Source: an uncultured bacterium
GTDB taxonomy: Bacteria; UBP6; UBA1177; CALOFP01
Length of the DNA stretch: 64,000 nt
Assembly: GCA_942492635.1 (NCBI GenBank)
Contig: CALOFP010000003.1
Span: 1,137,102 to 1,201,101, forward strand
Direction: 5' to 3'
Shown here piece after piece: positions 5,894 through 28,128 of the stretch. The notes below the pieces were generated by a model, which was not told the origin of the DNA, searched no databases, and saw only the letters and a program-made list of their open reading frames with translations. How positions within the stretch are numbered: position 1 is the stretch's first letter; each line of letters opens with the position of its first letter. A program made the position numbers and the translations under genes.

Positions 5894-8800
5894 ATGGACA
5901 GATCAAAACAATGGGGATTCCGGTTCCTTGTATCCACTTTTTTAATGATCATGTTTTTTTCTGCCGGCCTTGAAGCGGCGGACATGGTGATTTCAGGAAA
6001 TCCGCTTGTAATCACATCCCACGGGATGGGAAAAAAGACGGTCACCTACAACAGCACCAGGCAATACTACTCACCTTTTCCAACCTACCTTTTTCTAAAC
6101 GGCACAACACACAGAATCACATCCTTTACTGAGGTTTCCCATACAAAGCCGGATGAATGGACAATCGTCGCGGTTTACAAAAATGCCAATCCGCTGGTCA
6201 CGATCACTCAGACAATCACATACCGTAACGGCGACGCCTACTACAAGATTGTCTGGGATGTGAAAAATGAGAGCGGTACAAACTTCACGGACTGCAGGCT
6301 GATCCATGGCGGAGATACATACTTCGGCGGTTTCGACAGTTCGGAAGGAAACTACGATCCGACTCTCAAGATGGTCTATCTTTCAAATCCGGATCCCAAT
6401 GTGGACGGAATCATGGGCTTTTACGGTGCCCCCAGCTCTCCGGCGGATCACTATTTCGAGGGAGGCTACTCCGAAAACGGATCTGCAATGAGCAGCGGAA
6501 GACTTCCGGACACTTTCGTATCCAGTTTTATCGATTCGGGATATTCACTGGAGTGGGACAGGGCGACATTCAACAACGGCGAGACTTGGAGTGTTACGGC
6601 TTTTGAAAAGTGGACGGAAGCAGGAATGATCCAGGTGTTTGCTCCGGCAGCACAGGATGCTAGCCCCAGCCAGACTCTGACGTACAACTTCGTCCTTCAG
6701 AATCTCCAGAGCAGTCAGGATACATTCAACCTTTCTCTCAGTTCGTCACAGGGTTGGAGTTCGAATATTTCCGGCAGCAATCCCGTGACCGTTTCCGCAA
6801 ACGGATCCGCCACGGTATCGGCGACGTTGACAGTTCCTGCGAATGCTGCGGCCAACGTGCAGGATACTCTCACACTTACTGCCACATCCAATGCCAACGG
6901 TTCTATCAACAACAGCGACTCCGTTACAACAACAGTTGTTGCGCCGCCCAACAGCGCACCGGTGATAACCCAGGGTTCATCGACTTCCGTCACAATGTCG
7001 GAGGATTCTTCTCCTACTGCATTCAATCTGACGCTTAACGCTTCGGACAGCAATGGAGATACGATTACATGGAGCGTAACCTCCCCTGCCTCACATGGAA
7101 CTGCAACTGCAAACGGAACCGGCACAAGCAAAGCAATCGCCTACACTCCCGGTGCGAATTTCAACGGAAGCGACAGCTTTGTTGTTCAGGTCAGCGACGG
7201 AAACGGAGGAACGAACACCATTACCGTGAACGTCACAATCCAGCCTGTCAACGACCCGCCTGTAATCACATCAAATCCGAGCACTTCCATTAACGAGGAT
7301 TCTCCATACAGCTACACTCTGACTGCTACGGATGCGGATACAGGTGACAGTAAAACACTTTCCGCACCTACACTTCCATCTTGGCTCTCTTTCAATTCCG
7401 CATCCGGTGTTCTTTCAGGAACTCCGGGAAATGACGATGTGGGTAGTCACACAGTCAAATTGAGGGTAAATGACGGAAGTGTGAATATTGATCAGGATTT
7501 CGCAATAACCGTTGTGAATGTTAATGACCCTCCTGTAATTTCAGGATCACCTGCAACTTCCGTCAATGAAGATTCAGCCTACAGCTTCATTCCGGCCGCG
7601 AATGACGTTGATACGGGTGATTCGAAAACATTCCTGATCACCAACAAACCCGGCTGGGCCAGTTTCGATTCATCAACGGGTAAGCTTTCCGGAACACCGG
7701 ATAACTCCCACGTAGGCACAACCACCGGAATCGTCATCACCGTAAGAGACGGTTCTAATGCTGAAGATTCAATAGGTCCTTTTAATATCGAGGTTGTGAA
7801 CACAAACGACGCTCCGATCATTTCAGGATCACCCGCAACATCGGTAAATGAAGATTCCGGGTACAGTTTTACTCCGACCGTTAACGATGTGGATGTCGGT
7901 GATTCAAAAACTTTTACAATCACGAACAAACCTGTCTGGGCCAGTTTCGAATCTACAACAGGCAAGCTTTCGGGAACTCCGGACAATTCACACGTCGGAA
8001 CAACTACAGGAATAGTCATCACTGTAAAGGACGGATCCAACGCTGAAGATTCAGTCGGACCATTCAATATCGAAGTCATCAACACAAACGATGCTCCCGT
8101 GGTAACTTCGACAGCCGTTACTTCAGTTAATGAGGATTCAGGTTACAGCTATACTTTCACAGCTGAAGATGTGGACGCGTCCGACAGCCTTACTCTTTCC
8201 GCTCCCTCAATTCCGACTTGGCTCACTTTTGATCCGGCCACAGGAAAGTTGACAGGAACTCCGACAAATAATGAAGTGGGAGTTCACAACATAACTCTCC
8301 GGGTCAACGACGGAACTGTCAACACTGACCAGGAGTTCACAATCACCGTCACAAATACCAACGACGTTCCGGTTATCACATCGACGGCACCCGATTCTAT
8401 AAACGAAGATAGTGAATACAACTACACTTTCACAGCCGAAGATGTGGACTCAACCGACAGCCTTACTCTCTCCGCTCCCACAATTCCTACTTGGCTCACT
8501 TTTGATCCTTCCACTGGAAAGTTGAGTGGAACTCCGACAAACAACGAGGTGGGAATCCACAACATAACTCTCCGGGTCAACGACGGAACAGTCGATATTG
8601 ACGAAAATTTCACAATCACTGTTACAAATGTAAACGATTGTCCGGTGGTGACATCAACAGCCGTAACTTCCGTGAATGAGGATTCTACATACAACTACAA
8701 CTTTACAGCTGAAGATGTTGATGTGGGCGACAACCTCACTCTTTCCGCACCCACAATTCCGGCATGGCTTAATTTCAATCCGGAGACTGGCAAACTCTCA

Positions 8801-11800
8801 GGAACTCCCACAAATGACGAGGTCGGAACCCACAATATCGTCCTTCGGGTAAACGACGGAAAAGTAGATGTGGATCAGGAATTTTCCATAACTGTTGTGA
8901 ATACAAATGATGCACCGGTTATCAGCGGTACACCTGCGGCAACTGTCAATGAAGATTCTCCATACAGCTTCACTCCTGCTGTCAGCGATGTTGACGATGG
9001 CGACACAAAAACATTCACCATCACAAACAAACCGGACTGGGCCGACTTTGATTCAACAACAGGCAACCTTTCAGGAACTCCGGAAAATTCCCATGTCGGA
9101 ACGGTTTCCGGGATAGTAATCACTGTAAAGGACTCGGCTGATGCACAAGATTCAATAGGTCCGTTCAATATTGAGGTTATCAATACCAACGATGCGCCTG
9201 CAGTGACTTCGACAGCTGTTACTTCAGTTAATGAGGATAGCGGCTACAGTTACACTTTCACGGCAGAGGATATGGATGTCGGTGACGATCTCACACTTTC
9301 GGCCCCGACAATTCCCGCATGGCTGACTTTCGATGCTGCAACGGGAATTCTCTCGGGTACTCCGACAAATGACGAGGTCGGTTTTCATCGTATCGTTCTC
9401 AGGGTGAACGACGGAACTGTAGATGTCGATCAGGAGTTCAAGATCTCTGTCGTTAATGTAAATGACCTTCCGGTAATAACTTCAACTGCACCAACTTCCG
9501 TAGATGAAGACAGCGGATACAGCTACACTTTCACTGCCGAAGATGTGGATGCAGGAGACAATCTGACCCTCTCGGCACCCTCAATTCCCCTATGGCTTGA
9601 TTTTGATCCGGAAACGGGAGAGCTCTCGGGAACTCCGACAAATGATGCTGTCGGAGTTCACAATATCGTTCTTCGCGTGAACGACGGAACTGTCGATGTT
9701 GACCAGACTTTCTCAATCACGGTTGCAAATGTGAACGATGCTCCGGTAATCACTTCCGCCGCTCAAGAATCGGTAAATGAAGACAGTGAGTACCGCTACA
9801 CTTTCACGGCGGAAGATGAGGATGTAGGCGATAAGCTGACCCTCTCCGCGCCGATTCTTCCAAAATGGCTCAATTTCGATCCGGCAACGGGGCAACTCCA
9901 CGGCACTCCGACAAACGATGAGGTTGGAATACACAACGTCACTCTTCGGGTGAGCGACGCAAAGGTAGAGATCTACCAGGATTTCACCATCACAGTAGTG
10001 AACGTGAACGATCCACCTGTCATCGAAAGCCAGACTGCAACATTCTCAATAAATGAAGATAGTTACATCAACTTCGACCTGAACAGCGTTATCGCGACTG
10101 ATGTGGACGACAGCTATCCTGCAGGCTTCTCAATGAGTATCCTTCCCGGTGACAACTACTCCTTCAGCGGGCTTCAGGTAGCTCCCGACCGTGATTACTT
10201 CGGTGAACTTTTTGTAAGGGTTTCTGTAAACGACGGAGAACTGGACAGCGCACCTTTTGAAATTTCCGTAACGGTCAATCCTGTGAACGATGTCCCCTAC
10301 TTCGTTTCACCTACACCAACGGGAACCGTTAATATCGGTGAAGGAATCAGCAACAGATTCACCATCCGGGCAGAGGATGTGGACAACACGAATATCACCT
10401 ACGGAGCAAACGATCTTCCCGCTGGAGCACATGTGGATGGATCGACCGGAGAATTCAGCTGGAAACCGACATGGCGCGATGCTGGAATCTATCCTATCGT
10501 AATCTTCGCAACGGACGGTCAGCATCCTGTGATCAGGAACCTCACTCTTGTTGCCGAGTACATCGATAACGACAGGGACGATCTTCCCGATCTGTGGGAA
10601 GTTACGGTGGGACTGGATCCCTACAACAGCGACAGCGACGGTGACACAATTCCCGATGAAGTTGAGGTGGGAGCCAATCTCGACATGCCTTTGGACAGTG
10701 ATGGCGACGGAGTAATCGATGCGCTCGATGACGATAGCGATAACGACGGAATTCCCGATCAGCTGGAAGCCGGAAAGGATGTTGCCGAGAAAGGTCCGAG
10801 AGATACGGATGGAGACGGAGTCCCGGACTATCTTGACGCGGATTCCGATAACGACAGCGTAAACGACGATATCGACAACTGCGTACTTGTATCAAATGAG
10901 GATCAGCTCGATACGGATCTGGATGACATCGGTGATCTCTGTGAAAACGATACGGACGGTGACGGCATCGAGGACGATATCGAAACCGTAATCGGAACAG
11001 ATCCTATGAACAGGGACAGCGACGGAGATGGAATAGACGATAACATCGAAATCGGCGATCCCGTTAATCCTCCGGATTCCGACAGCGACGGAATAATCGA
11101 TGCGCTCGACACAGATTCCGATAATGACGGAATCGAAGACAGAAAGGAACGGGGAGAGGGCGAAACTCCCGTAGATACGGATTCGGACGGAATTCCGGAC
11201 TATCTCGACAGAGATTCGGATGACGACAATGTGGAAGATTCCCTCGACAACTGCCCTACGATCGAAAACAGTGATCAGACCGACGTCAACGAAAACGGTA
11301 TCGGAGATGCCTGCGAATCGGATTTGGATGGCGATGGTGTTTCAAATTTTCATGAAGCCAAGATAGGAACAGATCCGAACAATGCAGACAGCGACGGCGA
11401 CGGAATAAGCGACGATGTTGAGATAGGCGATCCTGAAAATCCGAAGGATTCGGACGGTGACGGAATAATCGATGCTCTCGATACCGATTCGGACAACGAC
11501 GGAATCGATGACAGAGATGAATGGGGAACCGGAGAAAAGCCTCAGGATACGGACGGCGACGGAACTCCAGACTATCTGGACACGGATTCCGACAACGACG
11601 GTGTGGAAGACTCCGCGGACAACTGCAGAACAGCTTCAAATGCTGATCAATCAGACCTCAATGAAAACGGCATCGGCGACCGCTGTGAGGATGACCGGGA
11701 CGGTGACGGAGTAAGCGACGAAGATGAGGCTAAAGCGGGAAGCAACCCCGATCTCGCCGACACGGACGGCGACGGAATTGGCGACGGAAAGGAGATCGGC

Positions 11801-14335
11801 GAAGATCCTGAAAACCCCCGAGACAGCGATGGCGACGGAATTCCCGATTTTGCGGATTCTGATTCTGATGACGATGGAATTTCGGACAAAGATGAAGGCG
11901 ACAGGGACAGTGATGAGGATGGAATCCCCGACTTTCTGGATGCCGATTCAGATTCCGATGGTGTAACTGACGACAAGGACAACTGCAGGCTCGCTGCCAA
12001 CAGCGATCAGGCCGATATCGACGAAGACGGAATCGGCAACGTGTGTGATGATGATCGGGACGGTGACGGTATTCCGAATGAAAAGGAGGTCGAAATCGGA
12101 TCCGATCCGGACAATCCGGACAGCGACGGTGACGGGAAAATCGACTCGGAAGAGATTCCGGACACGGAAACACCTAAAGACACTGACGGAGACGGTATCA
12201 TCGATGCACTGGATGATGACAGTGACGGCGACGGCGTGAAGGACAGGGATGAGGGAACCGGTGATATCGACAACGACGGTATCCCCGACTACCTGGACAG
12301 CGATTCCGATAACGACGGTGTGAAGGATTCGGAAGACAACTGTCTCCACACGCAAAATCCGGATCAGAAAGATCTTGATCAGGACGATCTTGGAGATGCA
12401 TGTGACGACGACCGGGACAGCGACGGTATTCCCAACGAAAAGGAGATTGAAGCGGGATCGAATCCGGACAAACATGACAGTGACGGTGACGGAATTCCCG
12501 ATTCGGATGAATTCAACAACGGCATAGACAGTGACAAGGACGGAATCATCGATGCCATGGATACCGACAGCGACAACGACGGTATTCCCGATGGAGAGGA
12601 AAACAGAAAGGATACCGATAACGACGGAATTCCCGATTTTCTTGACGGAGACAGTGACGGAGACGGAGTACGGGACAAGGACGACAACTGCCTTCTCGTC
12701 CCCAACTCCGATCAGGCAGATCTTGACGGCGACGGTATGGGCGATATCTGCGACGACGATCGTGACGGCGACGGTATTTCAAACGAAAAGGAGAATGAAA
12801 TCGGAACAAATCCGGATAAAACCGATAGCGACGGCGACGGAATTCCCGACAATGTAGAAATCGATAACACCGAAAAACCCAAGGATACGGATGGAGACGG
12901 AATCATCGACGCTGCGGAAGATGACTGCGATGGAGACGGAATAAATGACAACGAGGACAACTGCTGTGAGATATCCAACGCTGACCAGAGTGATCTGGAC
13001 GGTGACGGAATCGGCGACGCCTGCGATCCCGATCGTGACGGCGACGGTATTTCTAATGAAAAGGAGAATGAAATCGGAACAAATCCGGACAAGACCGACA
13101 GCGACGGCGATGGAATCGACGATTCTACGGAGTTCGGAAACGGTACGGAACCGAAAGACAGCGACGGTGACGGAATTGTCGATGCTGCGGATGAAGACAG
13201 CGACGGAGACGGAATTCCCGACAGCGCCGAAACCGGCACCGGCCAGATAAAGGACACAGACGGCGACGGAACGCCGGATCATCTCGATTCCGATAAGGAC
13301 GGCGACGGTGTGAATGACGATAAGGACAACTGTCCGAATGTTAAAAACAGCGATCAGGCGGATCTGGACGGCGACAAGTTCGGTGATCTCTGCGATGAGG
13401 ATCGTGACGGCGACGGTATCCCGAATGAGGAGGAGGACGCCATAGGATCGAACCCCAACAATCCCGATTCCGACAACGACGGTATTCCCGACGGTGACGA
13501 ACTTGGAAAGGATCGTGGTTATCCGGAAGATACCGACGGAGACGGAATTCCGGATGTCGTAGACAAGGACAGCGACGGAGACGGAATAAGTGACAGGGAG
13601 GAGGCGGGAAAAACCGATCCGACAGCGGATCCCAAGGATACAGACGGCGACGGAACTCCCGACTATCTCGAAAAGGATTGCGACGACGACGGCGTGGATG
13701 ACGATAAGGACAACTGTCCGCTTGTTGCCAATCCTGATCAGCTCGATACTGATGGAAACGGTGAAGGAGACCTGTGTGACGGAGACAAGGACGGCGACGG
13801 CGTTGAAAATGAAGAGGATAACTGCCCTCTCGTAAGAAACAACGATCAGAACGATCTGGAGGGTGACGGTATCGGAGATGTTTGTGATGGTGACGACGAC
13901 GGCGACAACATCTCCGACAGTACGGACAACTGTCCTCTGGTTGCTAATCCTTCACAGGATGACAGCGACGGCGACGGAATCGGAGACGCCTGTGACGATC
14001 CGGACAGCGACAAGGACGGACTCAGCGACGAGGAGGAGAAGAAGCTGGGAACAGATCCCAACAACCCCGACAGCGACGGCGACGGAGTTAAGGACGGCAT
14101 GGAATCGCTCAAGGACAGCGACGGCGACGGAGTTATTGATGTTAAGGACCCTGACAACAGCGATCCATACGATGAAAACTTCGACGTGGGCGGCGGAGGC
14201 GGATGTTCGATAATGGCAGTCACAGAGGAAAACGACGATCTTCCAATTTGGGTAACTCTTCTGCTGCTCTTTCTGATACTCTTTTCAGCAAAATCTAAAA
14301 ATCCGATCAATAGCAGACGAACAAACTCTGAATAG
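5894..14335 (+). CDS. Giant (2813 aa) secreted surface protein: N-terminal domain, 13 cadherin-like/He_PIG-like Ig modules, 11 thrombospondin type-3 (TSP3) calcium-binding super-repeats, and a C-terminal Gly-run/Cys/TM/basic tail
   Basis: The long ORF starts at 5741, but the ATG at 5894 has GGAGG 6 nt upstream and begins a signal peptide ([28 protein letters not shown]). The repeats have the form VN[DV]xPV...INEDS.Y.Y.F.A.D.D..D.L.LS...P.WL.F....G.LSGTP.N..VG. There are eleven DNCxxxxNxDQxDxDxDGxGDxCD motifs. Confidence 0.85.
6940..10560 (+). repeat. Array of ~92-aa cadherin-like / He_PIG-like module repeats (13 modules) within the giant CDS
   Basis: The protein repeats are bounded by VN(D/T)xP(V/I) and show clear DNA-level similarity between modules, for example 7800-8090 versus 7530-7800. 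Confidence 0.8.
10560..14150 (+). repeat. TSP3-type Asp-rich calcium-binding repeat array (~115-aa super-units) within the giant CDS
   Basis: The pattern [18 protein letters not shown].....N.DQ.D.D.DG.GD.CD.D.DGDG recurs throughout. GAY-rich codons leave many shadow ORFs open on both strands. Confidence 0.85.
14189..14332 (+). other. C-terminal tripartite sorting-signal-like tail of the giant protein
   Basis: The tail reads GGGGGCS, an acidic spacer ([12 protein letters not shown]), a hydrophobic helix ([13 protein letters not shown]), then a basic end ([16 protein letters not shown]). Confidence 0.5.
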
Positions 14336-14588
14336 CTGTCGCAAATTTCTTTTTAGAAACTTCATCAATTCTCTTCACTCTGAAAAACAATAGATTCTCT
14401 ATTCGAATTTCCAATATTTCCCGAGTCCATTTTTCTTAAACAACAAAACTGCAGGGTCGTTTTCTAAAACCCGATAAATTATGAAGAGATAGGAATATAA
14501 AAGCCGAATTACTCATTGACATATTTTTCAAATAAGATACAATGGTAATATTTTTCCTCAAACATACAAACTTTTCCTGAGGACAGGA

Positions 14589-15479
14589 ATGAAGATAAGT
14601 TTCTGCAAAAACCCTATCGTTTTTTCTCTCCCTCTAATCTTTTCACTGCTCATAACTTTTTCCTGCGGAAGCGAAGATATCGTCTCTCTCGAAAGGGACT
14701 CTCTTCCTGCGAACCACAAAAAAATCACGGTCAGAATTACCGACTACTGTCCTGAGGACAACAAGGAGTACGTGGACTTTTACGCCGTAAACAGATCGGC
14801 GAGGATCAGGGATGGAGAGCTTCGTATAGATTTCGACAGGGAGGGACTGGTCAACATCTACGACAACGATGAGGAACTCAACATAAATCCGTTCAAGGCG
14901 GACAGCAACGGCGACGGCTACGGGGACTTCCTGATCCACCTCTCGGGAATCAACCGGGAAAATCAGACTCACCTTAAAATATGCGAGGATCCCACTCAGG
15001 ACACCGATCTGGACGGTCTTACCGACTGCGAAGAGAACAACCTGCTCCACACCCATCCCCAATATTTCGATACCGATCACGACGGAATCCCGGATGAGCT
15101 GGAGGTGAGAAACAACATGAATCCCAGTGACCCCAACGATGCGTTCCAGGATATAGACGGTGACATGCTTTCAAATTCCGACGAGATCAAGTTGAACACA
15201 CCTATAGATGTAAGCAACACGAGATCAATAAATTCGCTTGCCTACAGGTACGACATACAGACCGAAATCAGGGAAGGCAGGAGCTGCTACGATATGACTG
15301 TTTTCAACATTCCTCTGGTCAAAGTATCAAACGGCAACCTGATCCGCATATATCTCATTGAAAAGATCAGCGATCTGGACATGAACATGAGAACTTTCAG
15401 AATCCTGGTCGATCATGACAAATATGAGGACGATGATGTCCTGGAGTTTACTTTGGATTCACTCAAGGAGGGAGCTTAA
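14589..15479 (+). CDS. Lipoprotein with TSP3-like Ca-binding motifs and a C-terminal module shared with the next gene
   Basis: It has a signal and lipobox (LLITFSC). TSP3-like motifs are DSNGDGYGD, DTDLDGLTDCEE and DTDHDGIPDELE. The C-terminal YRYDIQTEIREGRSCYDMTVFNIP...LIRIYLIE is paralogous to 15483..17207. Confidence 0.75.
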   Translation: MKISFCKNPIVFSLPLIFSLLITFSCGSEDIVSLERDSLPANHKKITVRITDYCPEDNKEYVDFYAVNRSARIRDGELRIDFDREGLVNIYDNDEELNINPFKADSNGDGYGDFLIHLSGINRENQTHLKICEDPTQDTDLDGLTDCEENNLLHTHPQYFDTDHDGIPDELEVRNNMNPSDPNDAFQDIDGDMLSNSDEIKLNTPIDVSNTRSINSLAYRYDIQTEIREGRSCYDMTVFNIPLVKVSNGNLIRIYLIEKISDLDMNMRTFRILVDHDKYEDDDVLEFTLDSLKEGA

Positions 15480-17207: not shown

Positions 17208-17227
17208 AAACTTTAATGGAGGGATCC

Positions 17228-20577: not shown

Positions 20578-20808
20578 ATGAATAGAGTGATCAATGTATC
20601 TGTTTTTTCGTTTCTACTGCTCTTTTTATACGCATCGGCCGTCGGAGCGGATAAAAAACAGATTCCGGAAGAAAAAAAGGCGATAGAGATAAAAGGTCAG
20701 ACAAGAAACTTCAACATGACACTGATTCTCAAAACCAAGAAAGACAAGATTTCCTTCGTGAAGACAAGAACCGATTACAGAAAGGAAATTCTCTCTACAG
20801 AACCGTAA
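20578..20808 (+). CDS. Small (76 aa) secreted protein of unknown function (GltF-like position)
   Basis: It carries a signal peptide (MNRVINVSVFSFLLLFLYASAVGA) and a Lys-rich mature part. It is tightly packed between the ExbD-like and TonB-like genes. Confidence 0.6.
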   Translation: MNRVINVSVFSFLLLFLYASAVGADKKQIPEEKKAIEIKGQTRNFNMTLILKTKKDKISFVKTRTDYRKEILSTEP

Positions 20809-20822
20809 ATCCGGGGTGAAAA

Positions 20823-22148
20823 ATGTTACTCAATTTTTTGAAAACACCGAACCTTTTCATTACATACGGCGGATCAGGAGGACAAATTCACCATCCCGTC
20901 ATTCCAATTACTGGAAAAAGCGACCAGTCCATAGAGATCGACAGGCGTAAATTCGGGATAATCCGATCCAGATCCCTGAGAAAAACCTTCCACATAAGGG
21001 ACGACGAGGGAAACACCCACGAACTAAAGTCAAACAGCGTTCTGAGCATCAAGATGCCGGGCAACTCCTACATGTTCCGAATAATCTATGAGTGGGGAAA
21101 TCCGGGAAATCGTTCTTTAAAAACGTTCCTGCTGCAGTCGTTTCTTTTTCATGCAGCAGTCATACTTGGATTTGCAATCTACTCCGCTGCAGTCGCCCCC
21201 AAGGTTGAGAGACCCGAGAACCTTGATCCTACGGCGGAAAGAGTCAAGGAGCTTCTCTCTAAAATGCAGGACAAGACACCCCTCAAAATCGTGAAGGAGG
21301 CGAAACCAAAACCGGCACCGGAAAAAGTGGTCGTTAAGAAAAAAGAGAAAAAGCGACAGGGGGTTTTCCCGACAAAACAGAAGGTTGCAGAGAAAACAGT
21401 TCGCAATAGAAGAGCCGTTGCCGCGAGATCCCTCCCTTCCGGAGCTCGAACATCCGCAAAATCAGGAGGCGGTGCAAAATCAATCGAGTCTTCTCTCTCG
21501 TTTCTTTCCAGTTCCGGATCGAAGGGACCTTCCCTCAATAACGGATCGGCGAAAAGAGGAAGAAGCTTCGGCCCCTCCTACGGAAAAGGAGGAATTCCAA
21601 TCGGGAAGGGAATTAAATCGGGCAGCAAACTTGGCGAAGGAGCCGCTTCCAGCTACTCAGGCCCCATAGAGACAAGAGGAATACGCAGCGTTAAATCTGC
21701 AGTTTACGGAGACGGAAGAGGTTACGGTGGAGGAGGAAAGAGCCTCAACAGCGTGCAGGGAACAGTTACAACAAGGGCGCTCAGAGGATCGAACAGAGGG
21801 CATGTGGGTGGAGCTTTGACCGCTTCAGGGGGATTATCACTTTCAGGGAAAGGAAAAGTTTCCGAGGCTTTGATTCAAAAGGCGCTCAACAAGAGAATTG
21901 CAAGGCTCACCTACTGCTATGAAAAGGCGCTTCTCACCGACTCCTCGCTGGCCGGTACCATTAAGATGCAGTGGACAATTCAACCGGGCGGAGCCGTTCA
22001 ATCGGTAAAGGTTGTTCGATCCGAACTGAACAACAGCAAACTGCACCGCTGTCTTGTGAGGGAGATCGAGAAGACACCGTTCCCCAAGCCTAAAGGCGGA
22101 ACGGCAACTGTTCAATACCCTTTTAAATTTAAAGCATCGACAATATAA
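20823..22148 (+). CDS. TonB-like envelope-spanning protein with an AgmX/PglI (GltG/GltJ)-type C-terminal domain
   Basis: It has a cytoplasmic N-terminus, one TM helix (FLLQSFLFHAAVILGFAIYSAAVA), a Lys/Pro-rich segment (KPKPAPEKVVVKKKEKK) and a Gly/Ser-rich linker. The C-terminus reads YCYEKALL..SLAGTIKMQWTI.PGG.V.SVKVV.SELNN..L..C....I....FPKPKGG.ATVQYPFKF. Confidence 0.75.
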   Translation: MLLNFLKTPNLFITYGGSGGQIHHPVIPITGKSDQSIEIDRRKFGIIRSRSLRKTFHIRDDEGNTHELKSNSVLSIKMPGNSYMFRIIYEWGNPGNRSLKTFLLQSFLFHAAVILGFAIYSAAVAPKVERPENLDPTAERVKELLSKMQDKTPLKIVKEAKPKPAPEKVVVKKKEKKRQGVFPTKQKVAEKTVRNRRAVAARSLPSGARTSAKSGGGAKSIESSLSFLSSSGSKGPSLNNGSAKRGRSFGPSYGKGGIPIGKGIKSGSKLGEGAASSYSGPIETRGIRSVKSAVYGDGRGYGGGGKSLNSVQGTVTTRALRGSNRGHVGGALTASGGLSLSGKGKVSEALIQKALNKRIARLTYCYEKALLTDSSLAGTIKMQWTIQPGGAVQSVKVVRSELNNSKLHRCLVREIEKTPFPKPKGGTATVQYPFKFKASTI

Positions 22149-22286
22149 CCCAATCCAACACATTCAAATTATTATACACCAAACAACAAAATCGAACACC
22201 AAAACTTGACATTCTATTAAAAAGACAATACTTTAAATTAAGCATTTAAAATAATAACAGTAATTATCATTAGGGAGCGATTTTTA

Positions 22287-22919
22287 ATGTTAAAAATAAG
22301 AGGTGTGTTACTACTTTTTACTGCTGTGGTGGTCGGTAACTGTCTTTGTTTCAACTTGTATGGCAATTCCAAGCCCTACGGAAAACTGGACGGAGCCCCC
22401 ATTTCATCGCTCGAAACCAACATTCAACCTCACAGGCACTCAATATTTCTGGGTATGGACAACCTTCCCTTCAACGCCTACTATGCGGGGCTGGGCATTT
22501 CGGCGAGCTATCAGTTCAACTTCACCAAAAACTTCGCGTGGGAAATTGCCAGAGGATCCTACTTCTTTTCCGTCGAAAAAGATCTCACAACAGAACTTGC
22601 GGAGGAATTCAGGGTCAATCCGGAACGGATAGAGAAGGTTGAAGCGATAGTAAAATCAAACATAAAATACTATTTCGTATACGGAAAGTGGCTGTTTCTT
22701 GAAAAATATATCCGCTACTTCCGCCTGGGAGTTCTTGCCGGACCGGCAATGGCCTTCACATCTGAGGAGATGAAGTTTCTGGCAAACGCAGGTCTCTGCT
22801 TTGACCTGAGCATCAACAGACACTTCTGGGCAACCTTCGAATTCCAGGACAGCATATCCATTGAAGAAGATTTTGAAACATACCCCGCCTTCAACTTTGG
22901 AATGAAACTCTCTTTTTGA
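22287..22919 (+). CDS. Small outer-membrane beta-barrel-like protein
   Basis: It has a signal peptide, alternating aromatic/hydrophobic beta-strand patterns, and a C-terminal aromatic end (FNFGMKLSF). Confidence 0.6.
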   Translation: MLKIRGVLLLFTAVVVGNCLCFNLYGNSKPYGKLDGAPISSLETNIQPHRHSIFLGMDNLPFNAYYAGLGISASYQFNFTKNFAWEIARGSYFFSVEKDLTTELAEEFRVNPERIEKVEAIVKSNIKYYFVYGKWLFLEKYIRYFRLGVLAGPAMAFTSEEMKFLANAGLCFDLSINRHFWATFEFQDSISIEEDFETYPAFNFGMKLSF

Positions 22920-22927
22920 GTGGGAGA

Positions 22928-24259
22928 ATGAACATGTTAAAGAATCTCCTCCCCATCGTTCTGCTTTTCGCCTTTGCCCTGGAACTGGCGGCAGCCACCA
23001 GATGGCACGGCGAAATCCCGAAAAACGCCAAAAATCCAGACAGCTGGAGAAAACTCCTTTCTGTACTGGAGCAGGAGCAGATGTACTACAGCGCCATGTC
23101 GACAGCCAACAGGATGCTACTCTTTTTCAACGACCTGAAGGTTAAGGAGGATGCCTACAGAGCCATCGTCAAGGTCAGCGGCCAGGGCTACCCCTTTCCG
23201 ACAAGACACATGTATCTTACGAGCGATCTGGAACCGAAAACCGGCTACTATTTTGTAAACAGCTTCAATCTCTACAAGGGAATCGTTAACCGGGAAAAGG
23301 GTCTGGAGAAGTGGGCAGAGCACTACTTTAAAAAAATAGACAGAGATCATTTTCCCAAATATCTTTTTTATACGGCCCTGACAGCCTATGAAAAAAAGGA
23401 TCTCGAGAAAGCCGCAAACATCATAAACAAGCTGCTGAAGATGGATCACGGTCCTTCCCGGCTTGCCTTTGTAAAAAAGATATCGAGAACACTCGCAAGG
23501 ATCTACTTCGAGATGGAACATTTCGACAAATCGCTGGATATCTACCTCAGCTTCCTTCTCAAGACTAATCCGGTAAAGTCCACAGACTGGCTTGAGGCAG
23601 CATGGAGTTTTTACCACCTCGGCAGGTTTGAGGAGGCTCTGGGTATTCTCTACAATCTGGAATCGGAAACTTTCAGTGAAGTTATTCACCTTGAAAAATT
23701 CATTCTGAGGGCACTCATATACAGGGCTGTTTGCGAAACAGAGTACATGGAAGGTTTGTCGAATAGTTTCAACAGAAAATTCGGCAAAATTGTCCATGGA
23801 GTGAAAACAGGAAAGTCGATGAACGAATTTGAAGAGCTAAACCTGCTCTCAAGTCACCAGCATCGTAAATTTTTCCAGTACCATTTCGTAAGAAAAAAGC
23901 TTCGAGAAGAGTCAAAAAGAGCGGTCTCGATTCCAGCCGACCTCAGAGTTCTTTACGATTACATGTTGGAGACGGAAGATGAGCTTCTTGTTAAGAACGC
24001 CCGCCTTTTTCAGGAGGAGAGCAGGCACAAATCCGTGAGGTATCTGATAATGCTTTCGGAAAATCTCAAGTTCCTCAAATTCGATGTCGAACTTGAAAAA
24101 CACAATCCTGACGTCGTTTTCGAGGAGCCGACAAAGGCAGGTGAGAAAGCGGACAGGGAGGAAAATCCCTTTTCCTATCTCTGGCCTCAGACGGGCGACT
24201 TCTGGGCAGATGAAAGAAACCACTACAGAGGAAAGTTGGAAAACAAATGTCGAAAATAA
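22928..24259 (+). CDS. Secreted helical-repeat (TPR-like) protein (GltE-like position)
   Basis: The ORF overlaps the upstream stop, and ATG 22928 or 22934 is the probable start. A signal peptide (LLPIVLLFAFALELAAA) is followed by repeated Y/A/L-rich helical hairpins, for example AAWSFYHLGRFEEALGILYNL. Confidence 0.6.
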   Translation: MNMLKNLLPIVLLFAFALELAAATRWHGEIPKNAKNPDSWRKLLSVLEQEQMYYSAMSTANRMLLFFNDLKVKEDAYRAIVKVSGQGYPFPTRHMYLTSDLEPKTGYYFVNSFNLYKGIVNREKGLEKWAEHYFKKIDRDHFPKYLFYTALTAYEKKDLEKAANIINKLLKMDHGPSRLAFVKKISRTLARIYFEMEHFDKSLDIYLSFLLKTNPVKSTDWLEAAWSFYHLGRFEEALGILYNLESETFSEVIHLEKFILRALIYRAVCETEYMEGLSNSFNRKFGKIVHGVKTGKSMNEFEELNLLSSHQHRKFFQYHFVRKKLREESKRAVSIPADLRVLYDYMLETEDELLVKNARLFQEESRHKSVRYLIMLSENLKFLKFDVELEKHNPDVVFEEPTKAGEKADREENPFSYLWPQTGDFWADERNHYRGKLENKCRK

Positions 24260-27200
24260 AAATTAAAATCTGGCTGATAGTCCTTCTGTTGGCAATCACC
24301 CCTCTATCCTCATTGAACGCCGAGGACAACACGGCACAGTTTCAAATAAAGCTTTCCAGCATGCTGGAGCGAATCAACAAATCGGTTGAAATTCTCAGAG
24401 CACAGATCCTGAACAACCAGAACGCCCCATTCCTCCCTGACCTATATCTTCAGCTCGGGAATCTCCTCACAAAGAAAGCAAATGTTCTCTATTACATACA
24501 GATGGAACGACAGGGAAGCGAAGTGCCGGCTGAAGGAGGAAAACAGAAATTCAAGGCGGTAACCGACGCCAGCATAGAGGCTATCCGGGTTTACCAGACC
24601 ATAGCGAACGATTTCAAATCGTACGATAAGATACCGAAAGTTCTATATCTTCTCTCGGTTTCATACCATTCGATAGGTGAAACAGCCAAATTCATGGCAA
24701 TGTCCGAAAAGCTAACCCGAACCTACCCCGAATCGACGGAAAGTTTGAGAGTGAGACTTCTTCTCGGAAAGCACTATTTCGACGAAGAGGAGTATGAGGA
24801 TGCGGAAGAGGCTCTCGAACCTGTGACGGAATCCAACCTCGTCTATGAGAGAAACCGTGCGAAATACTATCTTGGAGTGCTCTACCTCAGACTCGAGCGA
24901 TATAAATCGGCCTTGATGACCTTTGAGGAGATCATCCTCGACGAGGAGCTTGACGATGAAGATTCTCCGAGAAGCGTTTCACTGAAGACCAGCAAGATCA
25001 GTTCCAGCCTGAAAAGGGAGGCTCTGATAGACTCAATAAAGGCGTTCACGCATGTCTTTCCCGACCACAAAAATCCGGTTCAATACTACGCCCAGCTTGC
25101 ACCAACGGAGATTCTCTTTCAGGAGGTGATTGAGAAGCTGGCATTCAGACAGATAAATCTCAAAAAGTATCAGTCGGCGATAAATCTGCTCCGCGCACTC
25201 AGCGAACGGACCCGTGATCCTGAAAAAGTTGTAAACATCTACCAGGAAGTTCTCACCATGGTTCCGCTTCACAAGCGGCTGGACATAAAGGTAGACGAAA
25301 TCAGTTACGTTCTCGAAAAGTTCAACATCTGGTTTTCTTACTTCAAGCTGACTCCCGAAATGAAAAAGACCGCCTACCGTTTTCTTGAAATACAGCTGAG
25401 AGAATTCGGTACGAAAAGTCATGACATGGCAAAAAAGATGAAGGGTTCCGAAAAGGAGATCTACCTGAAAAGAGCTGCGGAATTTTACAGGATCTATCTG
25501 GGATTTTTTCCAAATTCCGAAAACAAGGTCAAGGTTGCCACGAATCTTGCCGACACATATTTCCTTCTCAAAAAATTTCCCGAAAGCGGCAGCTACTATC
25601 TCAGAATTGCAGAAGATGAGTTCGGCAAACCGAAAGAGAAGGATCAACTTTTAGACAACGCACTTCTCATCCTCCAGAAAGATGGCGAATACTCCTATTA
25701 TGAGCAGTTCTGGCGCAGAGGACTGCTCATAAGCGCCATTAAAAAGGCTTTTGAGTTGAACGAAATGAAAAAGAAGGATCAGAAGCTCAACTTCATACTT
25801 GCAAAAACCTACTACGAGCAGGCGCTCTACGACACGGCTCTCACCTCACTCTACGATTACATGCGGAACTACCCTGCAGGCGAATACGTTGAGGATGCCG
25901 GAGAACTAATCCTGAGTTACTTCAATGAAAAAGGGGACTATGAAAAGTTGAATGAGTGGGCAAACAAACTGCTCAGCCTCAATCTCAAAGATCCGAAATT
26001 CACTGCTAAAATCGACAAAATCAAGATGCAGGCAAAAGTAAAGAGCCTGGATAAAACAATAAGGAACACTGAAGGTTACGACGAACTTCAGCAGGGAAAA
26101 AGCTACTATAAGTTTGCACAACAGTCAACGGATATAGAAGTCAAGTCGGTTGCCATGCAGCAGGCACTTCAAAAAAGCAGGGACGAAAAGGATGTCAGGA
26201 CATTCTTTAAAGTTGCAAATTCGATGGCTTCAGGCGAAAAAGATGGCAAGAAACTGCTGGCTATCTACCTTTCGATAGCCAATGAAAGCATCTACCTGGC
26301 CCGCTACTACACCGCTATCGACGCTCTGATGAAAATCGTAAACGGTTCCTTCGAACCGAATTCAAAACTCGACGCCTTCATGGAATCGATAAATATCGGT
26401 ATCGCCCTCAAGGATTTCTCACTGCTGAAAGGCTACGTTTTCCATCCGCTGTGGAACAGGCTGGCGGAAAAGGTGAAGAACAGGGTTGTCCGGACAATAG
26501 CCGATGCGATAGAGTCTCCACTCAAAATGGACGATCAATTCGCAAGGATACTACTGAAGGACGACAGATCACTCGCCGCGCTTTTCAAGGCCAGATACAA
26601 ATTCTCACCGTCGATTCAAAGTGAAATAGAGAGCAGAGTATCCTCACTGTGCAAGGGAGAAAACGGCAATCCAACATGTCTTTGGAGCTATCTGAATCAG
26701 TTGGATTCGACCAAAGTTCAATTTATTGCAAAACTCGAAAAGGCATCGGTTTCACCCGATGAGATCTCAACTTACGGAAACGAGTTCTTCAACATCCAGC
26801 AGTCCTACCAGCGAATATCCAACAGTGAAGACATCCAACTTGAGATGCTGATTGCCATAAGAAACATAGAACTTTACGGAGCATTTGCCATGTACCTTCA
26901 GAAAGTGGCCAACAGCAACCCGGAAATAAGCGGTCCTCTTACGGCAAAGGTGGACGAGAGTTTAAGAACACGTGGACAGTACGTCGATTTCTGCAGCAAA
27001 ATTCAGGATCAATCACCCGAAGTTGTAAAAACCAGAAAGTACTGTTCTCTCAAATCGGGAGTTCCCTCAATCGACGATGTTTTGAAGTGGCCTAAGCAGC
27101 TCAGACATGTCACACCTGAAAAGAACGATTCCGAGAACTCCGATATTCTTGCGATCCAGAAAAGCATACTCGGCAACGGCAAGAATGCTGAAAACTATCT

Positions 27201-27432
27201 GAAGATGGGAGAAATATATCTTGAGAAGAAAAAGTTCCACCACGCTGCGGCAACAGCCATGTACGGAATGTCCTTTTTCAACGAACAGAAAGATAAGTTT
27301 TACGCAATCATCGGCTGCGGGGCTCTGAAACTGGGGCTAGTAAGCGAAGCAAAATACTATTTAAACCAGGCTTCCGATTACGAGGATTTAACTTCAGAGT
27401 GCCTGGAAGAGTTAAAGGATTTTGAGGAGTAG
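24247..27432 (+). CDS. Large (1061 aa) secreted TPR-repeat protein (GltD/AgmU- or NfsD-like)
   Basis: It overlaps the upstream gene by 13 nt and carries a signal peptide (IWLIVLLLAITPLSSLNA). Many TPR-like hairpins are present (YLLSVSYHSIGE, YYLGVLYLRLERYKSALMTFEEI, LAKTYYEQALYDTAL, MGEIYLEKKKFHHAAATAMYG). Confidence 0.7.
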   Translation: MSKIKIKIWLIVLLLAITPLSSLNAEDNTAQFQIKLSSMLERINKSVEILRAQILNNQNAPFLPDLYLQLGNLLTKKANVLYYIQMERQGSEVPAEGGKQKFKAVTDASIEAIRVYQTIANDFKSYDKIPKVLYLLSVSYHSIGETAKFMAMSEKLTRTYPESTESLRVRLLLGKHYFDEEEYEDAEEALEPVTESNLVYERNRAKYYLGVLYLRLERYKSALMTFEEIILDEELDDEDSPRSVSLKTSKISSSLKREALIDSIKAFTHVFPDHKNPVQYYAQLAPTEILFQEVIEKLAFRQINLKKYQSAINLLRALSERTRDPEKVVNIYQEVLTMVPLHKRLDIKVDEISYVLEKFNIWFSYFKLTPEMKKTAYRFLEIQLREFGTKSHDMAKKMKGSEKEIYLKRAAEFYRIYLGFFPNSENKVKVATNLADTYFLLKKFPESGSYYLRIAEDEFGKPKEKDQLLDNALLILQKDGEYSYYEQFWRRGLLISAIKKAFELNEMKKKDQKLNFILAKTYYEQALYDTALTSLYDYMRNYPAGEYVEDAGELILSYFNEKGDYEKLNEWANKLLSLNLKDPKFTAKIDKIKMQAKVKSLDKTIRNTEGYDELQQGKSYYKFAQQSTDIEVKSVAMQQALQKSRDEKDVRTFFKVANSMASGEKDGKKLLAIYLSIANESIYLARYYTAIDALMKIVNGSFEPNSKLDAFMESINIGIALKDFSLLKGYVFHPLWNRLAEKVKNRVVRTIADAIESPLKMDDQFARILLKDDRSLAALFKARYKFSPSIQSEIESRVSSLCKGENGNPTCLWSYLNQLDSTKVQFIAKLEKASVSPDEISTYGNEFFNIQQSYQRISNSEDIQLEMLIAIRNIELYGAFAMYLQKVANSNPEISGPLTAKVDESLRTRGQYVDFCSKIQDQSPEVVKTRKYCSLKSGVPSIDDVLKWPKQLRHVTPEKNDSENSDILAIQKSILGNGKNAENYLKMGEIYLEKKKFHHAAATAMYGMSFFNEQKDKFYAIIGCGALKLGLVSEAKYYLNQASDYEDLTSECLEELKDFEE

Positions 27433-27438
27433 ATCTTT

Positions 27439-28128
27439 ATGCCAAAAATAAAAAACATCGGTTTTCTTTCTACAACCCTCCTACTCTGGGCAGTGATTTT
27501 CATTCCATCCTCACTTTTCGCAGGTGCAACTCAAAGCAGCGATTTCATGAAAGAAAACAAAAACCTCCAGCAGTACATCCACAAGGAACCGCACTCCAAT
27601 ATCTATCTGGGTGCCGGACTTGTTCCCGTCGGGCTCATGAAAAACCGGTTTTTTTTCGGAGCCAGCATCTTTCAGGCCCACTACATAAACAAGTGGGTAG
27701 ACGTAGAGATGCTTAACATCACATTCGGAGCCAGCAGGGCGGAAGAGAGCGAGTACTCCGCGTATCACTTCATATTCCGCGCCAGTCCGAAATACCGGCT
27801 GTTCGACTTCCTGAGCATCGGACCACTCGTCGCGCTTGAGTATGTCAGTTTCCCGGATGTAAGCAAAAAAGAGTATAAAATCCCCTACTTCACTCCACTC
27901 GAACCTTTCTCTTCCCTCGGATACATCTGGGGTGTAATGATCAGTGAACAGTTTCTTTACAAAAAGTACATAATAAAAATAAACCAGTTCTTCTACCAGC
28001 AGAACTACTCCGTAAAAGAGTCCCTTCACGGTTGGAGCTACTGGTTTGAGGACGAGGAACTGCAGAACGACCCCGAACCGATCGAAGCCGGATTCATCAT
28101 CGGACTGGAGTTGTCGTTTCTTTTCTAA
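27439..28128 (+). CDS. Small outer-membrane beta-barrel-like protein, second copy
   Basis: An RBS (GAGGAG) precedes the start. It has a signal peptide, beta-strand periodicity, and ends in GLELSFLF with a terminal Phe. Confidence 0.6.
   Translation: MPKIKNIGFLSTTLLLWAVIFIPSSLFAGATQSSDFMKENKNLQQYIHKEPHSNIYLGAGLVPVGLMKNRFFFGASIFQAHYINKWVDVEMLNITFGASRAEESEYSAYHFIFRASPKYRLFDFLSIGPLVALEYVSFPDVSKKEYKIPYFTPLEPFSSLGYIWGVMISEQFLYKKYIIKINQFFYQQNYSVKESLHGWSYWFEDEELQNDPEPIEAGFIIGLELSFLF

Follow-up and report, generated by a model that had tools for sequence, protein, structure and literature searches.

A predicted 12-gene operon of an uncultured bacterium probably combines a Bdellovibrionota-type Agl/Glt-like trans-envelope machine with surface adhesins

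We report that positions 14589-28128 of a 64,000-nt stretch of DNA from an uncultured bacterium (contig CALOFP010000003.1; the whole stretch is called the window here) are, in our moderately confident judgment, one predicted 12-gene operon for a Bdellovibrionota-type Agl/Glt-like trans-envelope machine together with probable surface adhesins. By sequence, nine of the genes appear to specify the Agl/Glt(Nfs)-type machine that the initial annotation had proposed, and not an ordinary ExbBD-TonB or Tol-Pal set; the AgmX/PglI tail of the TonB-like protein, its match to the GltG model over 340 residues and the GltD-position homology of the 1061-aa protein all argue for this assignment. The remaining three genes encode a trio of lipoproteins, which we designated lipoA, lipoB and lipoC.

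All 13 plus-strand open reading frames of the locus were found in the ORF check of the window (Table 1). They are separated by -13 to +32 nt, save for two larger gaps of 253 nt (14336-14588) and 138 nt (22149-22286), and their coordinates match the layout described initially. The promoter-like site within the first gap is the best match in a scan of 5.2-24 kb, by consensus match only, and probably represents the start of the 12-gene transcription unit. Nothing was found by Rfam in the 14336-14588 gap.

Table 1. Features of the adhesin and Agl/Glt-like locus, in window coordinates.
Feature	Position	Strand	Basis or remark
Giant secreted adhesin-like protein	5894..14335	+	~2813 aa; longest ORF from 5741
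Sigma-70-like promoter match	14516..14543	+	TTGACA-16-TACAAT, 11/12; 45 nt upstream of lipoA
lipoA, 296-aa lipoprotein-like, TSP3-type Ca-binding repeats	14589..15479	+	NCBIfam
lipoB, 574-aa lipoprotein: N-terminal vWA, then TSP3 repeats, C-terminal beta-sandwich	15483..17207	+	VWA_2
lipoC, 561-aa lipoprotein with PKD domain	17216..18901	+	PKD_4/PKD
AglR/TolQ-like proton channel subunit, 210 aa	18934..19566	+	MotA_ExbB
TolR/ExbD-like protein 1 (TolR1), 168 aa	19579..20085	+	ExbD, below cut-off
TolR/ExbD-like protein 2 (TolR2), 162 aa	20087..20575	+	ExbD, 46 bits
76-aa secreted protein	20578..20808	+	Conserved motif; occupies GltF place upstream of GltG
GltG-like TonB-type transducer, 441 aa	20823..22148	+	NF033768, GltG model
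OMP1, 210-aa GltA/GltB-like outer-membrane beta-barrel	22287..22919	+	OMP_myx_plus, hhalign
GltC-like periplasmic TPR protein	22916..24259	+	447 aa from TTG; 443 aa from ATG at 22928
GltD-like 1061-aa TPR scaffold protein, signal peptide	24247..27432	+	phmmer, profile, hhalign
OMP2, 229-aa probable outer-membrane protein	27439..28128	+	Conserved C-terminal signal
Convergent Fe-ADH gene	28219-29310	-	Marks the end of the operon

In the GltG-like protein, residues 7-90 are predicted to form a cytoplasmic beta-sandwich and residues 97-123 a transmembrane helix; a disordered linker rich in Lys, Pro and Gly follows, and residues 339-436 make up an AgmX/PglI TonB-like C-terminal domain. The last of these, already recognized in the initial annotation, scored 95.6 bits against NF033768, for which the cut-off is 40. 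The GltG model was matched too, at 83 bits along residues 102-440; since its equivalog cut-off is 650, we classify the protein as a homologue of GltG, not an equivalog. A profile built from its family retrieved the G-position proteins of Myxococcota clusters with 96 and 61 bits, and TonB C-terminal domains were matched when its AF2 model was searched with Foldseek. FHA domains, which are N-terminal and cytoplasmic in GltG of M. xanthus and of the Myxococcota clusters L035 and L036, were found neither by Pfam and NCBIfam in the GltG-like protein nor by Foldseek in its 90-residue N-terminal beta-sandwich. With no FHA domain detectable, nothing visibly connects the machine to a platform in the cytoplasm or on the cytoskeleton.

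The GltD-like protein retrieved P0101 and P0102 by phmmer, with E=7.5e-7 and 7.5e-5 among 5.8 billion sequences; both are D-position genes of Myxococcota B-A-C-D-E-F-G-H clusters. Its family profile scored 81 and 80 bits against D-position proteins, and hhalign gave 99.1% and 98.5% over 520-650 columns. Neither the window protein nor the D-position protein of L035 was matched by any NCBIfam model named GltD, and the YbgF TPR model that is matched by the 1061-aa protein is likewise the only signature of GltD-position proteins. The alignments indicate distant homology between this protein and the one encoded at the GltD position in the glt clusters of Myxococcota. Its smaller neighbour scored 40 bits (E=1.7e-10) against the NCBIfam GltC model NF033756, far under the equivalog cut-off of 450, and aligned with the GltC of L035 at 92% over 220 columns (hhalign), and at only 10% with that of L036. 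TPR repeats were found in both proteins first described as TPR-like, the shorter of which we count in its larger form from TTG. Neither of them matched E-position proteins (hhalign <=3.4%), and no third TPR gene that could stand for GltE is present at the locus. Counterparts of GltH, GltI, GltJ, GltK and CglB are also lacking there; like GltE, these are parts on which M. xanthus gliding depends, and their absence speaks against a gliding role. The reference Myxococcota glt clusters contain proteins that match the GltC, GltE, CglF, GltG and CglE models; in the window, homology extends to the GltD position of those clusters and probably to the GltC and GltA positions, and the curated equivalog cut-offs for GltG, GltC and CglD are all missed widely.

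Two barrel-like outer-membrane proteins had been proposed. OMP1 scored 47.9 bits against OMP_myx_plus, under the cut-off of 60, and aligned by hhalign at 96% with the protein in the GltA position of L035, for which that model gives 95 bits. For OMP2 the barrel call rests on a conserved C-terminal aromatic signal, E-I-S-x-L-F/Y, and on a weak match between its profile and that of the OMP1 family (84.7%, 57 columns). OMP2 is conserved in at least 14 loci and is specific to clusters of this type; it matched no known family model, OMP_myx_plus matched none of 14 family members, and no tie to GltA, GltB or GltH emerged. The candidate barrels measure only 210-229 aa.

The channel subunit matched MotA_ExbB (PF01618) with 92 bits, its best NCBIfam model being tolQ, and the two TolR/ExbD-type proteins annotated beside it matched ExbD with 18 bits (TolR1; E=0.0025, below cut-off) and 46 bits (TolR2). 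In TolR1, Ser replaces the transmembrane Asp of TolR/ExbD proteins, and the surrounding PIMSLML is conserved in 11 orthologues; alignment shows that TolR2 keeps the conserved Asp (SLMDVLT). The 76-aa protein fits GltF/CglF in position, size and signal peptide, and its motif, GQ(S/T)RN(F/L)NM ... F.K.R..Y..E, is conserved in 13 loci. It matched no family model, the CglF model NF033764 matched none of 13 members of its family, and hhalign to GltF/CglF-position proteins gave 4%.

The domains initially assigned to the three lipoproteins (TSP3, vWA plus TSP3, and PKD) were supported. In lipoA, the TSP3 region of the MtsD model was matched with E=1e-19 and the CglD model with E=3e-6 (NCBIfam), and the C-terminal region (residues 138-272) cross-hit the C-terminal part of lipoB orthologues. 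lipoB scored 27.8 bits against VWA_2 (cut-off 27) in addition to its TSP3 repeats. Its MIDAS is intact (D68-x-S70-x-S72, T155, D193), and across 43 homologues these residues and the lipobox Cys24 show little or no variation. Foldseek searches with the AF2 model (pLDDT 87.5) returned ANTXR2, Plasmodium TRAP, the LapA vWFA domain and the integrin alphaM I-domain as top matches, and the modelled fold is that of an adhesion-type vWA domain. lipoB carries domain-level features of CglD/CglB-type proteins, namely a lipobox Cys and a MIDAS vWA and, for CglD, also TSP3 repeats; the M. xanthus gliding adhesin CglD is a MIDAS vWA lipoprotein with TSP3/COMP-like Ca-binding repeats (bioRxiv 10.1101/2023.10.19.562135). 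Membership in the CglD family (NF033765, cut-off 400) was not reached by lipoB (20 bits), lipoA (25) or the giant protein (41), and we read these matches as similarity at the level of repeats and domains only. For lipoC, PKD_4 scored 25.3 bits, slightly under its cut-off, and a sequence search of the PDB found the ColH PKD domain (E=3e-7). Its C-terminal tail, Cys-x-Gly(7-9)-x-Pro-Pro-x-Glu, is conserved, the Cys and seven Gly being invariant in 8 orthologues (23-56% identity) and the residues beyond varying slightly; apart from this tail, the C-terminal half has no assignment.

Gene neighborhoods were compared in 28 distinct related loci, nearly all labelled Bdellovibrionota and mostly from MAGs, the closest of which share 37-50% identity with the window locus. 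The wider family includes MAGs labelled 'Bdellovibrio sp.' (L020, L026). The nine core machine genes recur in most of the 28 loci. Within the window's clade, each of the four loci (L002, L004, L009, L010) has the trio beside the machine with the gene order unchanged, as do the distant loci L015 and L016. In L013, L020 and L021 the trio lies near the machine, which makes 9 of 28 loci in all, many of the 28 having short flanks. It occurs with TolQ subunits of both sequence clades; in L037 it stands alone, with no machine genes near. Since the trio adjoins the machine throughout the window's clade and in 9/28 loci overall, we conclude that it belongs with the machine, and the linkage of lipoproteins to motor that had been claimed from the window is kept in relatives.

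How these parts may work can be sketched by analogy with the Agl-Glt and Nfs systems of M. xanthus, from which we infer that the machine would serve gliding or the movement of surface adhesins. The TolQ-like channel and the TolR1/TolR2 pair, of which only TolR2 has the protonatable Asp, would assemble into an inner-membrane stator driven by the PMF. This stator would energize the GltG-like protein, whose long disordered linker and TonB-like C-terminal domain could span the periplasm, where the GltD-like and GltC-like proteins would provide a TPR scaffold connected to OMP1 and OMP2. The three lipoproteins would be retained at this platform in the outer membrane, or displayed by it, and may bind a substratum or prey surface through their Ca-binding TSP3, MIDAS-vWA plus TSP3 and PKD domains. 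Motor work would then shift the adhesins relative to the cell, resulting in gliding or in directed motion of surface-bound adhesins or cargo. It is possible, if somewhat doubtful, that the trio, in which most lipoC copies continue the invariant Cys-x-polyGly stretch with x-Pro-Pro-x-Glu, supplies the adhesins long sought for the Bdellovibrionota gliding engine, and that the 12-gene operon, with the lineage-specific OMP2 and the 76-aa protein, is a complete, self-contained minimal gliding or adhesin-conveyor unit that dispenses with the Myxococcus cytoplasmic platform (GltI, GltJ, AglZ, FHA) and uses the poly-Gly tail as a tether threaded into the outer-membrane barrels.

The locus, being without FHA domains, resembles the non-motility Nfs paralogue more than Glt, and an alternative of lesser but real probability is that its PMF-driven machine moves or organizes a surface polymer or proteins without propelling the cell, in envelope or coat assembly, in prey attachment or invasion, or in exit. 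M. xanthus and B. bacteriovorus have several paralogous sets each, only one of which drives M. xanthus gliding (PMC3169522). As in Nfs, GltI, GltJ, AglZ-type cytoplasmic parts and FHA domains are absent from the locus, and the F-G and A-C-D gene order resembles the single-operon layout of nfs and of the Anaeromyxobacter type. However, the genes co-encoded as cargo are for adhesin-type lipoproteins (MIDAS vWA, TSP3, PKD), not for polysaccharide synthesis, and no glycan genes of the kind associated with exo/nfs lie nearby.

The giant gene upstream had been regarded as coupled to the machine. Its product contains He_PIG (x11), Big_9 (x12), Cadherin_4/5 and TSP_3 (x17) domains (Pfam, NCBIfam) and ends in GGGGGCS followed by a transmembrane helix and a basic tail. 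The start at 5894 chosen in the initial annotation is sensible and preferred to 5741, because the signal peptide then falls at the N-terminus. That the machine has this ~2800-aa TSP3/cadherin protein as its cargo, to be exported, anchored or moved, so that all 13 genes would act together as a functional unit, seems improbable to us. The gene does lie directly upstream of the operon on the same strand, shares TSP3 repeats with lipoA and lipoB, and encodes a Gly-Cys, transmembrane and basic C-terminus that suggests envelope anchoring. Yet no related locus has an orthologue beside the machine (TSP3-repeat cross-hits were the only matches); its place is taken by a divergent TPR gene in L002 and by a chemoreceptor gene in L004, and the 253-nt gap with the strongest promoter-like site of the region sets it apart from the operon. 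Counting the giant, at least six genes of the window encode large surface proteins; with at least five others present, its adjacency is unremarkable. The coupling claimed for it was not upheld, and the giant is probably a neighboring, separate gene outside the conserved module.

That the locus is an ordinary Tol-Pal or ExbB-ExbD-TonB gene set for energy transduction, with TPR proteins as accessories and a role in envelope integrity or nutrient uptake, or, as a variant, a Bat-like vWA/TPR aerotolerance operon, is very improbable and largely refuted: the channel's best NCBIfam matches are tolQ and exbB, the YbgF match of the 1061-aa protein would suit such a cluster and the BatB vWA domain is among the Foldseek matches of lipoB, but the reading fails because no TolB/Pal or TonB-dependent receptor (Plug plus 22-strand barrel) gene occurs, nor TolA or CpoB, among the 13 proteins and flanking genes, MoxR and DUF58 genes are likewise missing at the locus, the TonB-like protein has an AgmX/PglI-specific tail above cut-off, and GltD-position proteins can be aligned with the 1061-aa protein across more than 500 columns. 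Grouping of these two proteins with uptake clusters had been named beforehand as evidence against an Agl/Glt-like machine; by profile and alignment they side instead with GltG and the GltD-position proteins.

The Agl/Glt-like locus is a tidy further example and no new type of system, because four such sets are known in B. bacteriovorus, as is a vWA gene that belongs to a gliding cluster. What it offers is a compact arrangement, kept together across distant Bdellovibrionota, in which a Glt-like machine is co-encoded with three adhesin-type lipoproteins. The trio are candidate adhesins, OMP2 and the 76-aa protein are uncharacterized conserved parts that we nominate for study in Bdellovibrio, and the whole is a minimal inventory against which the 17-protein machine of Myxococcus can be compared.

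B. bacteriovorus glides, according to the literature, and strain HD100 has four 'expanded core complex' sets, Bd0828-0838, Bd1474-1481, Bd2369-2377 and Bd3598-3601 (Luciano et al. 2011). The window locus is of this 'expanded core' type and not the 'reduced core' known outside the former Deltaproteobacteria, to which the initial annotation had likened it. In inventory and protein size it agrees with Bd1474-1481 and Bd2369-2377 (Luciano et al. Table S3). The HD100 sets share with it an AglR/Q/S-like motor, a short GltG, a GltF-position protein of ~80 aa, a GltD of ~1000-1200 aa, a GltC of ~450-700 aa and an OMP of ~240 aa, mostly have no GltE, and have no GltH, I, J or K, which are also missing from B. 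bacteriovorus (PMC3169522). A vWA adhesin-type gene is associated with gliding clusters in Bdellovibrio too; bd3099 is surface-induced together with aglQ bd1480 (Lowry et al. 2022, PMC9140294). The window locus differs in joining three lipoprotein and nine machine genes in one collinear predicted operon, and comes from an uncultured lineage. Of the initial statement that such a configuration is not characterized, one part holds, in that no cluster of this kind is known to have been taken apart by experiment in organisms other than Myxococcus; the gene sets and bd3099 were already known.

With the Agl-Glt system of M. xanthus (the bacterial focal adhesion, with adhesins CglB and CglD), the locus shares a TolQR-type motor with two TolR-like subunits, a GltG-type transducer with an AgmX/PglI tail, a TPR scaffold of a GltD-like and a putative GltC-like protein, a probable OMP_myx_plus-type barrel, and lipoproteins, here candidate adhesins, with MIDAS vWA and TSP3/COMP-like Ca-binding repeats. 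It differs in lacking GltE, GltH, GltI, GltJ, GltK, CglB and the FHA domains of GltG. The vWA/TSP3 order differs from that in CglD, and TSP3 repeats occur also in the separate lipoA. The M. xanthus genes are spread over the G1, G2 and M1 clusters and separate cgl genes, whereas those of the window form one predicted operon.

The Nfs spore-coat machine of M. xanthus (nfsA-H) is likewise a Glt paralogue that is encoded in a single operon and lacks cytoplasmic platform proteins; it is powered by a similar motor and moves material associated with the surface, as the window machine may do by analogy. Nfs has GltE- and GltH-type members, in contrast to the window locus, lacks co-encoded adhesin lipoproteins and borrows the AglRQS motor encoded elsewhere, whereas the window encodes the motor in the operon. 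The 'core complex' of Gammaproteobacteria, Geobacter and Fibrobacter (aglRQS plus gltD, E, G, C; Luciano et al. 2011) also has motor, GltG, GltD and GltC in one operon, the last of these having a putative counterpart here. Relative to it, the window locus has no GltE and has in addition probable GltA/B-type OMPs and a gene in the GltF position; both are 'Group A' features, confined to Myxococcales and Bdellovibrionales (Luciano et al. 2011).

The thirteen plus-strand ORFs were found exactly as laid out in the initial annotation. On the ORF map they are spaced by -13 to +32 nt, except for gaps of 253 nt (14336-14588) and 138 nt (22149-22286), and a convergent Fe-ADH gene closes the run. The longest ORF of the giant adhesin-like gene begins at 5741; the start at 5894 in that annotation is more plausible because the signal peptide is then N-terminal. 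The best sigma-70-like match within 5.2-24 kb (11/12) lies 45 nt upstream of lipoA, the first gene of a lipoprotein trio, and neither the 253-nt gap nor the rest of the window gave an Rfam match to a riboswitch or another RNA. Pfam and NCBIfam reproduced nearly every domain call made earlier for the thirteen proteins. The 76-aa secreted protein and the 229-aa OMP2 matched no family model.

Features of the window, with Pfam and NCBIfam matches of the ORFs in the run and scores of family profiles against the Myxococcota reference clusters L035 and L036
Feature	Position	Strand	Domain or family match	Reference position and scores
Giant	5894-14335	+	He_PIG, Big_9, cadherin-like, TSP3
Giant, C-terminal signal	14180-14335
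lipoA, 296 aa	14589-15479	+	TSP3 region
lipoB, 574 aa	15483-17207	+	VWA_2 + TSP3
lipoC, 561 aa	17216-18901	+	PKD
lipoC, tail	18850-18901
TolQ-like, 210 aa	18934-19566	+	MotA_ExbB
TolR1, 168 aa	19579-20085	+	ExbD, weak
TolR2, 162 aa	20087-20575	+	ExbD, strong
GltG-like, 441 aa	20823-22148	+	AgmX/PglI C-terminal domain, 95.6 bits (cut-off 40)	G; hmmsearch 96 and 61 bits
OMP1, 210 aa	22287-22919	+	OMP_myx_plus, 47.9 bits (below cut-off 60)	A; hmmsearch 34 bits, hhalign 96%
GltC-like, 447 aa	22916-24259	+	TPR	C, not E; hmmsearch E=4e-6, hhalign 92%
GltD-like, 1061 aa	24247-27432	+	TPR	D; hmmsearch 81 and 80 bits, hhalign 99.1% and 98.5% over 520-650 columns
Fe-ADH	28219-29310	-
DUF6144 protein	4756-5319
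Three secreted proteins	33576-35156, 35718-39188, 39782-45163	+
Tandem paralogues, 1430 and 1402 aa	48408-52700, 52918-57126
Ankyrin-repeat protein, 326 aa	61150-62130	-
RHS/YD-shell protein	62195-63943	-

A database search returned few close homologues of the GltG-like protein, and a scan with its alignment (one genome per species) gave 25 loci, nearly all of them under the labels Bdellovibrionales, Oligoflexia, Bacteriovoracaceae or Bdellovibrio sp. Identity is 37-39% at the closest loci. We read one near locus labelled 'Anaeromyxobacter' as a mis-binned MAG, and take the wider family of the locus to be Bdellovibrionota. When all 13 window proteins were compared with every related locus by tblastn, the nine machine genes, from TolQ-like to OMP2, were present in almost every locus with sufficient contig, either collinear or with the OMP-TPR-TPR-OMP block ahead of, or divergent from, the motor block.

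The proposed linkage of the lipoproteins to the machine was borne out, as the trio lies beside or near it in 9 of 28 distinct loci, with a flank too short to judge in many others. It stands immediately upstream of the motor, its order kept, in four loci of the window's clade (L002, L004, L009, L010) and two distant ones (L015, L016), has the OMP block as its neighbour in L013 and L020, and is found 5 kb downstream in L021. The trio occurs with both TolQ-subunit sequence clades, and also without the machine (L037, on a contig of 2.78 Mb). A fourth lipoprotein of 565-584 aa is encoded upstream of the trio in the distant Bdellovibrionota loci L015 (1052-2806) and L016 (459-2156); by BLASTP, the L016 copy clusters with the lipoA/lipoB family and the L015 copy is a weak match to the giant's repeats only. 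An FGE-sulfatase-domain gene, absent from the window, directly follows the last OMP gene of L002 on the same strand (17544-18506).

The giant adhesin, previously proposed as probable cargo or adhesin of the machine, fared differently: no relative's locus has an orthologue of it adjoining the machine, and the gene before the trio is a divergent TPR gene in L002 and a chemoreceptor gene in L004. Because the giant thus has no syntenic orthologue, a promoter-like site precedes lipoA, and at least five further genes for large surface proteins lie in the window, we define the module as the 12 genes at 14589-28128.

The C-terminus of the giant has GGGGGCS, next a hydrophobic helix and last a basic tail; it resembles MYXO-CTERM/exosortase-type sorting signals and is recognised by no NCBIfam model. 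Between the giant and an upstream minus-strand 1092-aa lipoprotein-like gene lies the gene of a DUF6144 protein (259 bits); tblastn detected no similarity of the 1092-aa gene to its positional counterpart in L004, a gene of 1106 aa. Elsewhere in the window, three consecutive genes encode secreted proteins that combine lamin-tail (LTD) and CBM_4_9 domains with numerous EGF-like ones (Pvs28/teneurin-type), an adhesion vocabulary like that of eukaryotes, and each of two tandem paralogues has REJ-like regions besides five K319L-like PKD domains and three proprotein-convertase P-domains. An ankyrin-repeat protein (at least five repeats) adjoins an RHS/YD-shell protein in a region with a GC content of just 35-39%, possibly an island of toxins or effectors.

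The 12-gene locus very probably encodes a machine of the Glt/Nfs family. The GltG-like protein matched the NCBIfam model of M. xanthus GltG (83 bits, residues 102-440) and the GltJ tail, and generic TonB weakly. Homologues of the 1061-aa protein are many (980-1240 aa), all of them unnamed; its most distant matches, the Myxococcota proteins P0101 and P0102, led to the neighbourhoods L035 and L036, which served as reference clusters and share the gene order B-A-C-D-E-F-G-H. NCBIfam verified L035, with two OMP_myx_plus proteins, GltC (207 bits), GltE, CglF (=GltF), GltG (279 bits, with the AgmX tail) and CglE (=GltH). P0022, a Hyalangium protein and the sole GltG-named match of the first search, was dropped as a reference, its neighbourhood not being a glt cluster. 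Family profiles made from the related loci were then set against L035 and L036 with hmmsearch and hhalign. The TonB-like and 1061-aa proteins, which could have grouped with ordinary ExbBD-TonB clusters, both sided with the proteins at the G and D positions. The 1061-aa protein matches no NCBIfam model with the name GltD; this carries no weight, since the D-position protein of L035 matches none either, and both have YbgF-type TPR matches only. No protein of the locus contains a Plug/TonB-dependent-receptor, TolB, Pal, MoxR or DUF58 domain, and Tol-Pal, TonB-uptake and Bat readings were therefore rejected. GltE, H, I, J, K and CglB have no counterpart at the locus.

In the AF2 model of the GltG-like protein, a cytoplasmic beta-sandwich of 90 residues is followed by a TM helix, then by some 190 residues of disordered linker and a TonB-like domain that is modelled with confidence. 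Foldseek matched this model to TonB C-terminal domains (6sly, 5lw8), with no FHA fold among the matches for its N-terminus, and a profile search against PDB sequences returned TonB alone (E=0.41). TolR/ExbD proteins conserve a transmembrane Asp, taken as the proton-binding residue. In our alignment TolR1 has Ser at this position in 11/11 orthologues and TolR2 retains Asp, a pairing that suggests, from sequence, an asymmetric stator dimer. The 76-aa protein occupies the place of gltF and is kept in 13 loci; neither hhalign nor a scan of 13 family members detected similarity to GltF/CglF. OMP2, kept in 14 loci, bears a C-terminal aromatic signal and weakly matches the OMP1 family. Its assignment to GltA/B/H was unsupported by hhalign and model search, and it matches no known family.

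At least 147 clusters, of 520-590 aa, belong to the lipoB family. An alignment of 43 members shows no variation at the lipobox Cys24 or at the MIDAS residues D68 and S70, and very little at S72, T155 and D193. The AF2 model of lipoB is confident (pLDDT 87.5), and structure comparison placed its vWA domain nearest to adhesion-type vWA domains (ANTXR2, Plasmodium TRAP, LapA, integrin alphaM I-domain). TSP3 Ca-binding loops are present in lipoA, whose C-terminal region aligns with the C-terminal part of lipoB orthologues by tblastn. In domain vocabulary (TSP3, MIDAS vWA) the two resemble CglD, the TSP3/COMP-like and MIDAS-vWA surface lipoprotein that serves M. xanthus as a gliding adhesin (bioRxiv 10.1101/2023.10.19.562135); their arrangement, however, is unlike that of CglD, and they miss the CglD model cut-off by far. 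LipoC has a PKD domain and a C-terminal tail with Cys-x-Gly(7-9), in which the Cys and seven of the Gly do not vary across 8/8 orthologues with 23-56% identity (window, L005, L009, L010, L011, L016, L021, L037), followed in most copies by x-Pro-Pro-x-Glu. This tail, after which there is no TM helix and which no family model spans, might be a tether or processing signal.

Read by analogy with Agl-Glt/Nfs (PMC11761067), the observed parts, with their conservation and homologies, point to a working scheme in which a TolQ/TolR1/TolR2 stator driven by PMF would energise the GltG-like transducer. The linker and TonB-like domain of the latter would engage a GltD/GltC-like periplasmic scaffold, which in turn would couple to an OMP1/OMP2 platform holding the lipoprotein adhesins. 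With an adhesin bound to a surface, motor work would result in gliding or in movement of surface-bound material. A rival reading, that the machine has a non-motility, Nfs-like role, seems to us rather unlikely. The whole statement, a Glt-like machine in which the lipoproteins act as adhesins, appears reasonably probable.

Luciano et al. 2011 (PMC3169522) defined a core complex of aglRQS with gltD, E, G and C, described four 'expanded' sets in B. bacteriovorus with GltF, A and B and without H, I, J and K, and proposed bacteria with such sets as potential gliders. Two of the HD100 sets, Bd1474-1481 and Bd2369-2377, share the window's inventory, with proteins of similar size, and GltE occurs in one HD100 set only (PMC3169522). 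The vWA-motif gene bd3099 of a gliding cluster is surface-induced alongside aglQ bd1480 (Lowry et al. 2022, PMC9140294), and a 2026 review still counts the motor and adhesins of Bdellovibrio as yet to be identified (PMC13104615). Since these sets and the vWA gene have been described, this kind of system, even its vWA link, is already in the literature; the machine and lipoproteins of the initial annotation are retained, and its giant adhesin and claim of novelty are not. What the locus adds to the known systems is two conserved parts without an assigned family (the 76-aa protein and OMP2), evidence that all three lipoproteins track the machine as one unit, and a 12-gene version, from an uncultured lineage, that is collinear throughout.
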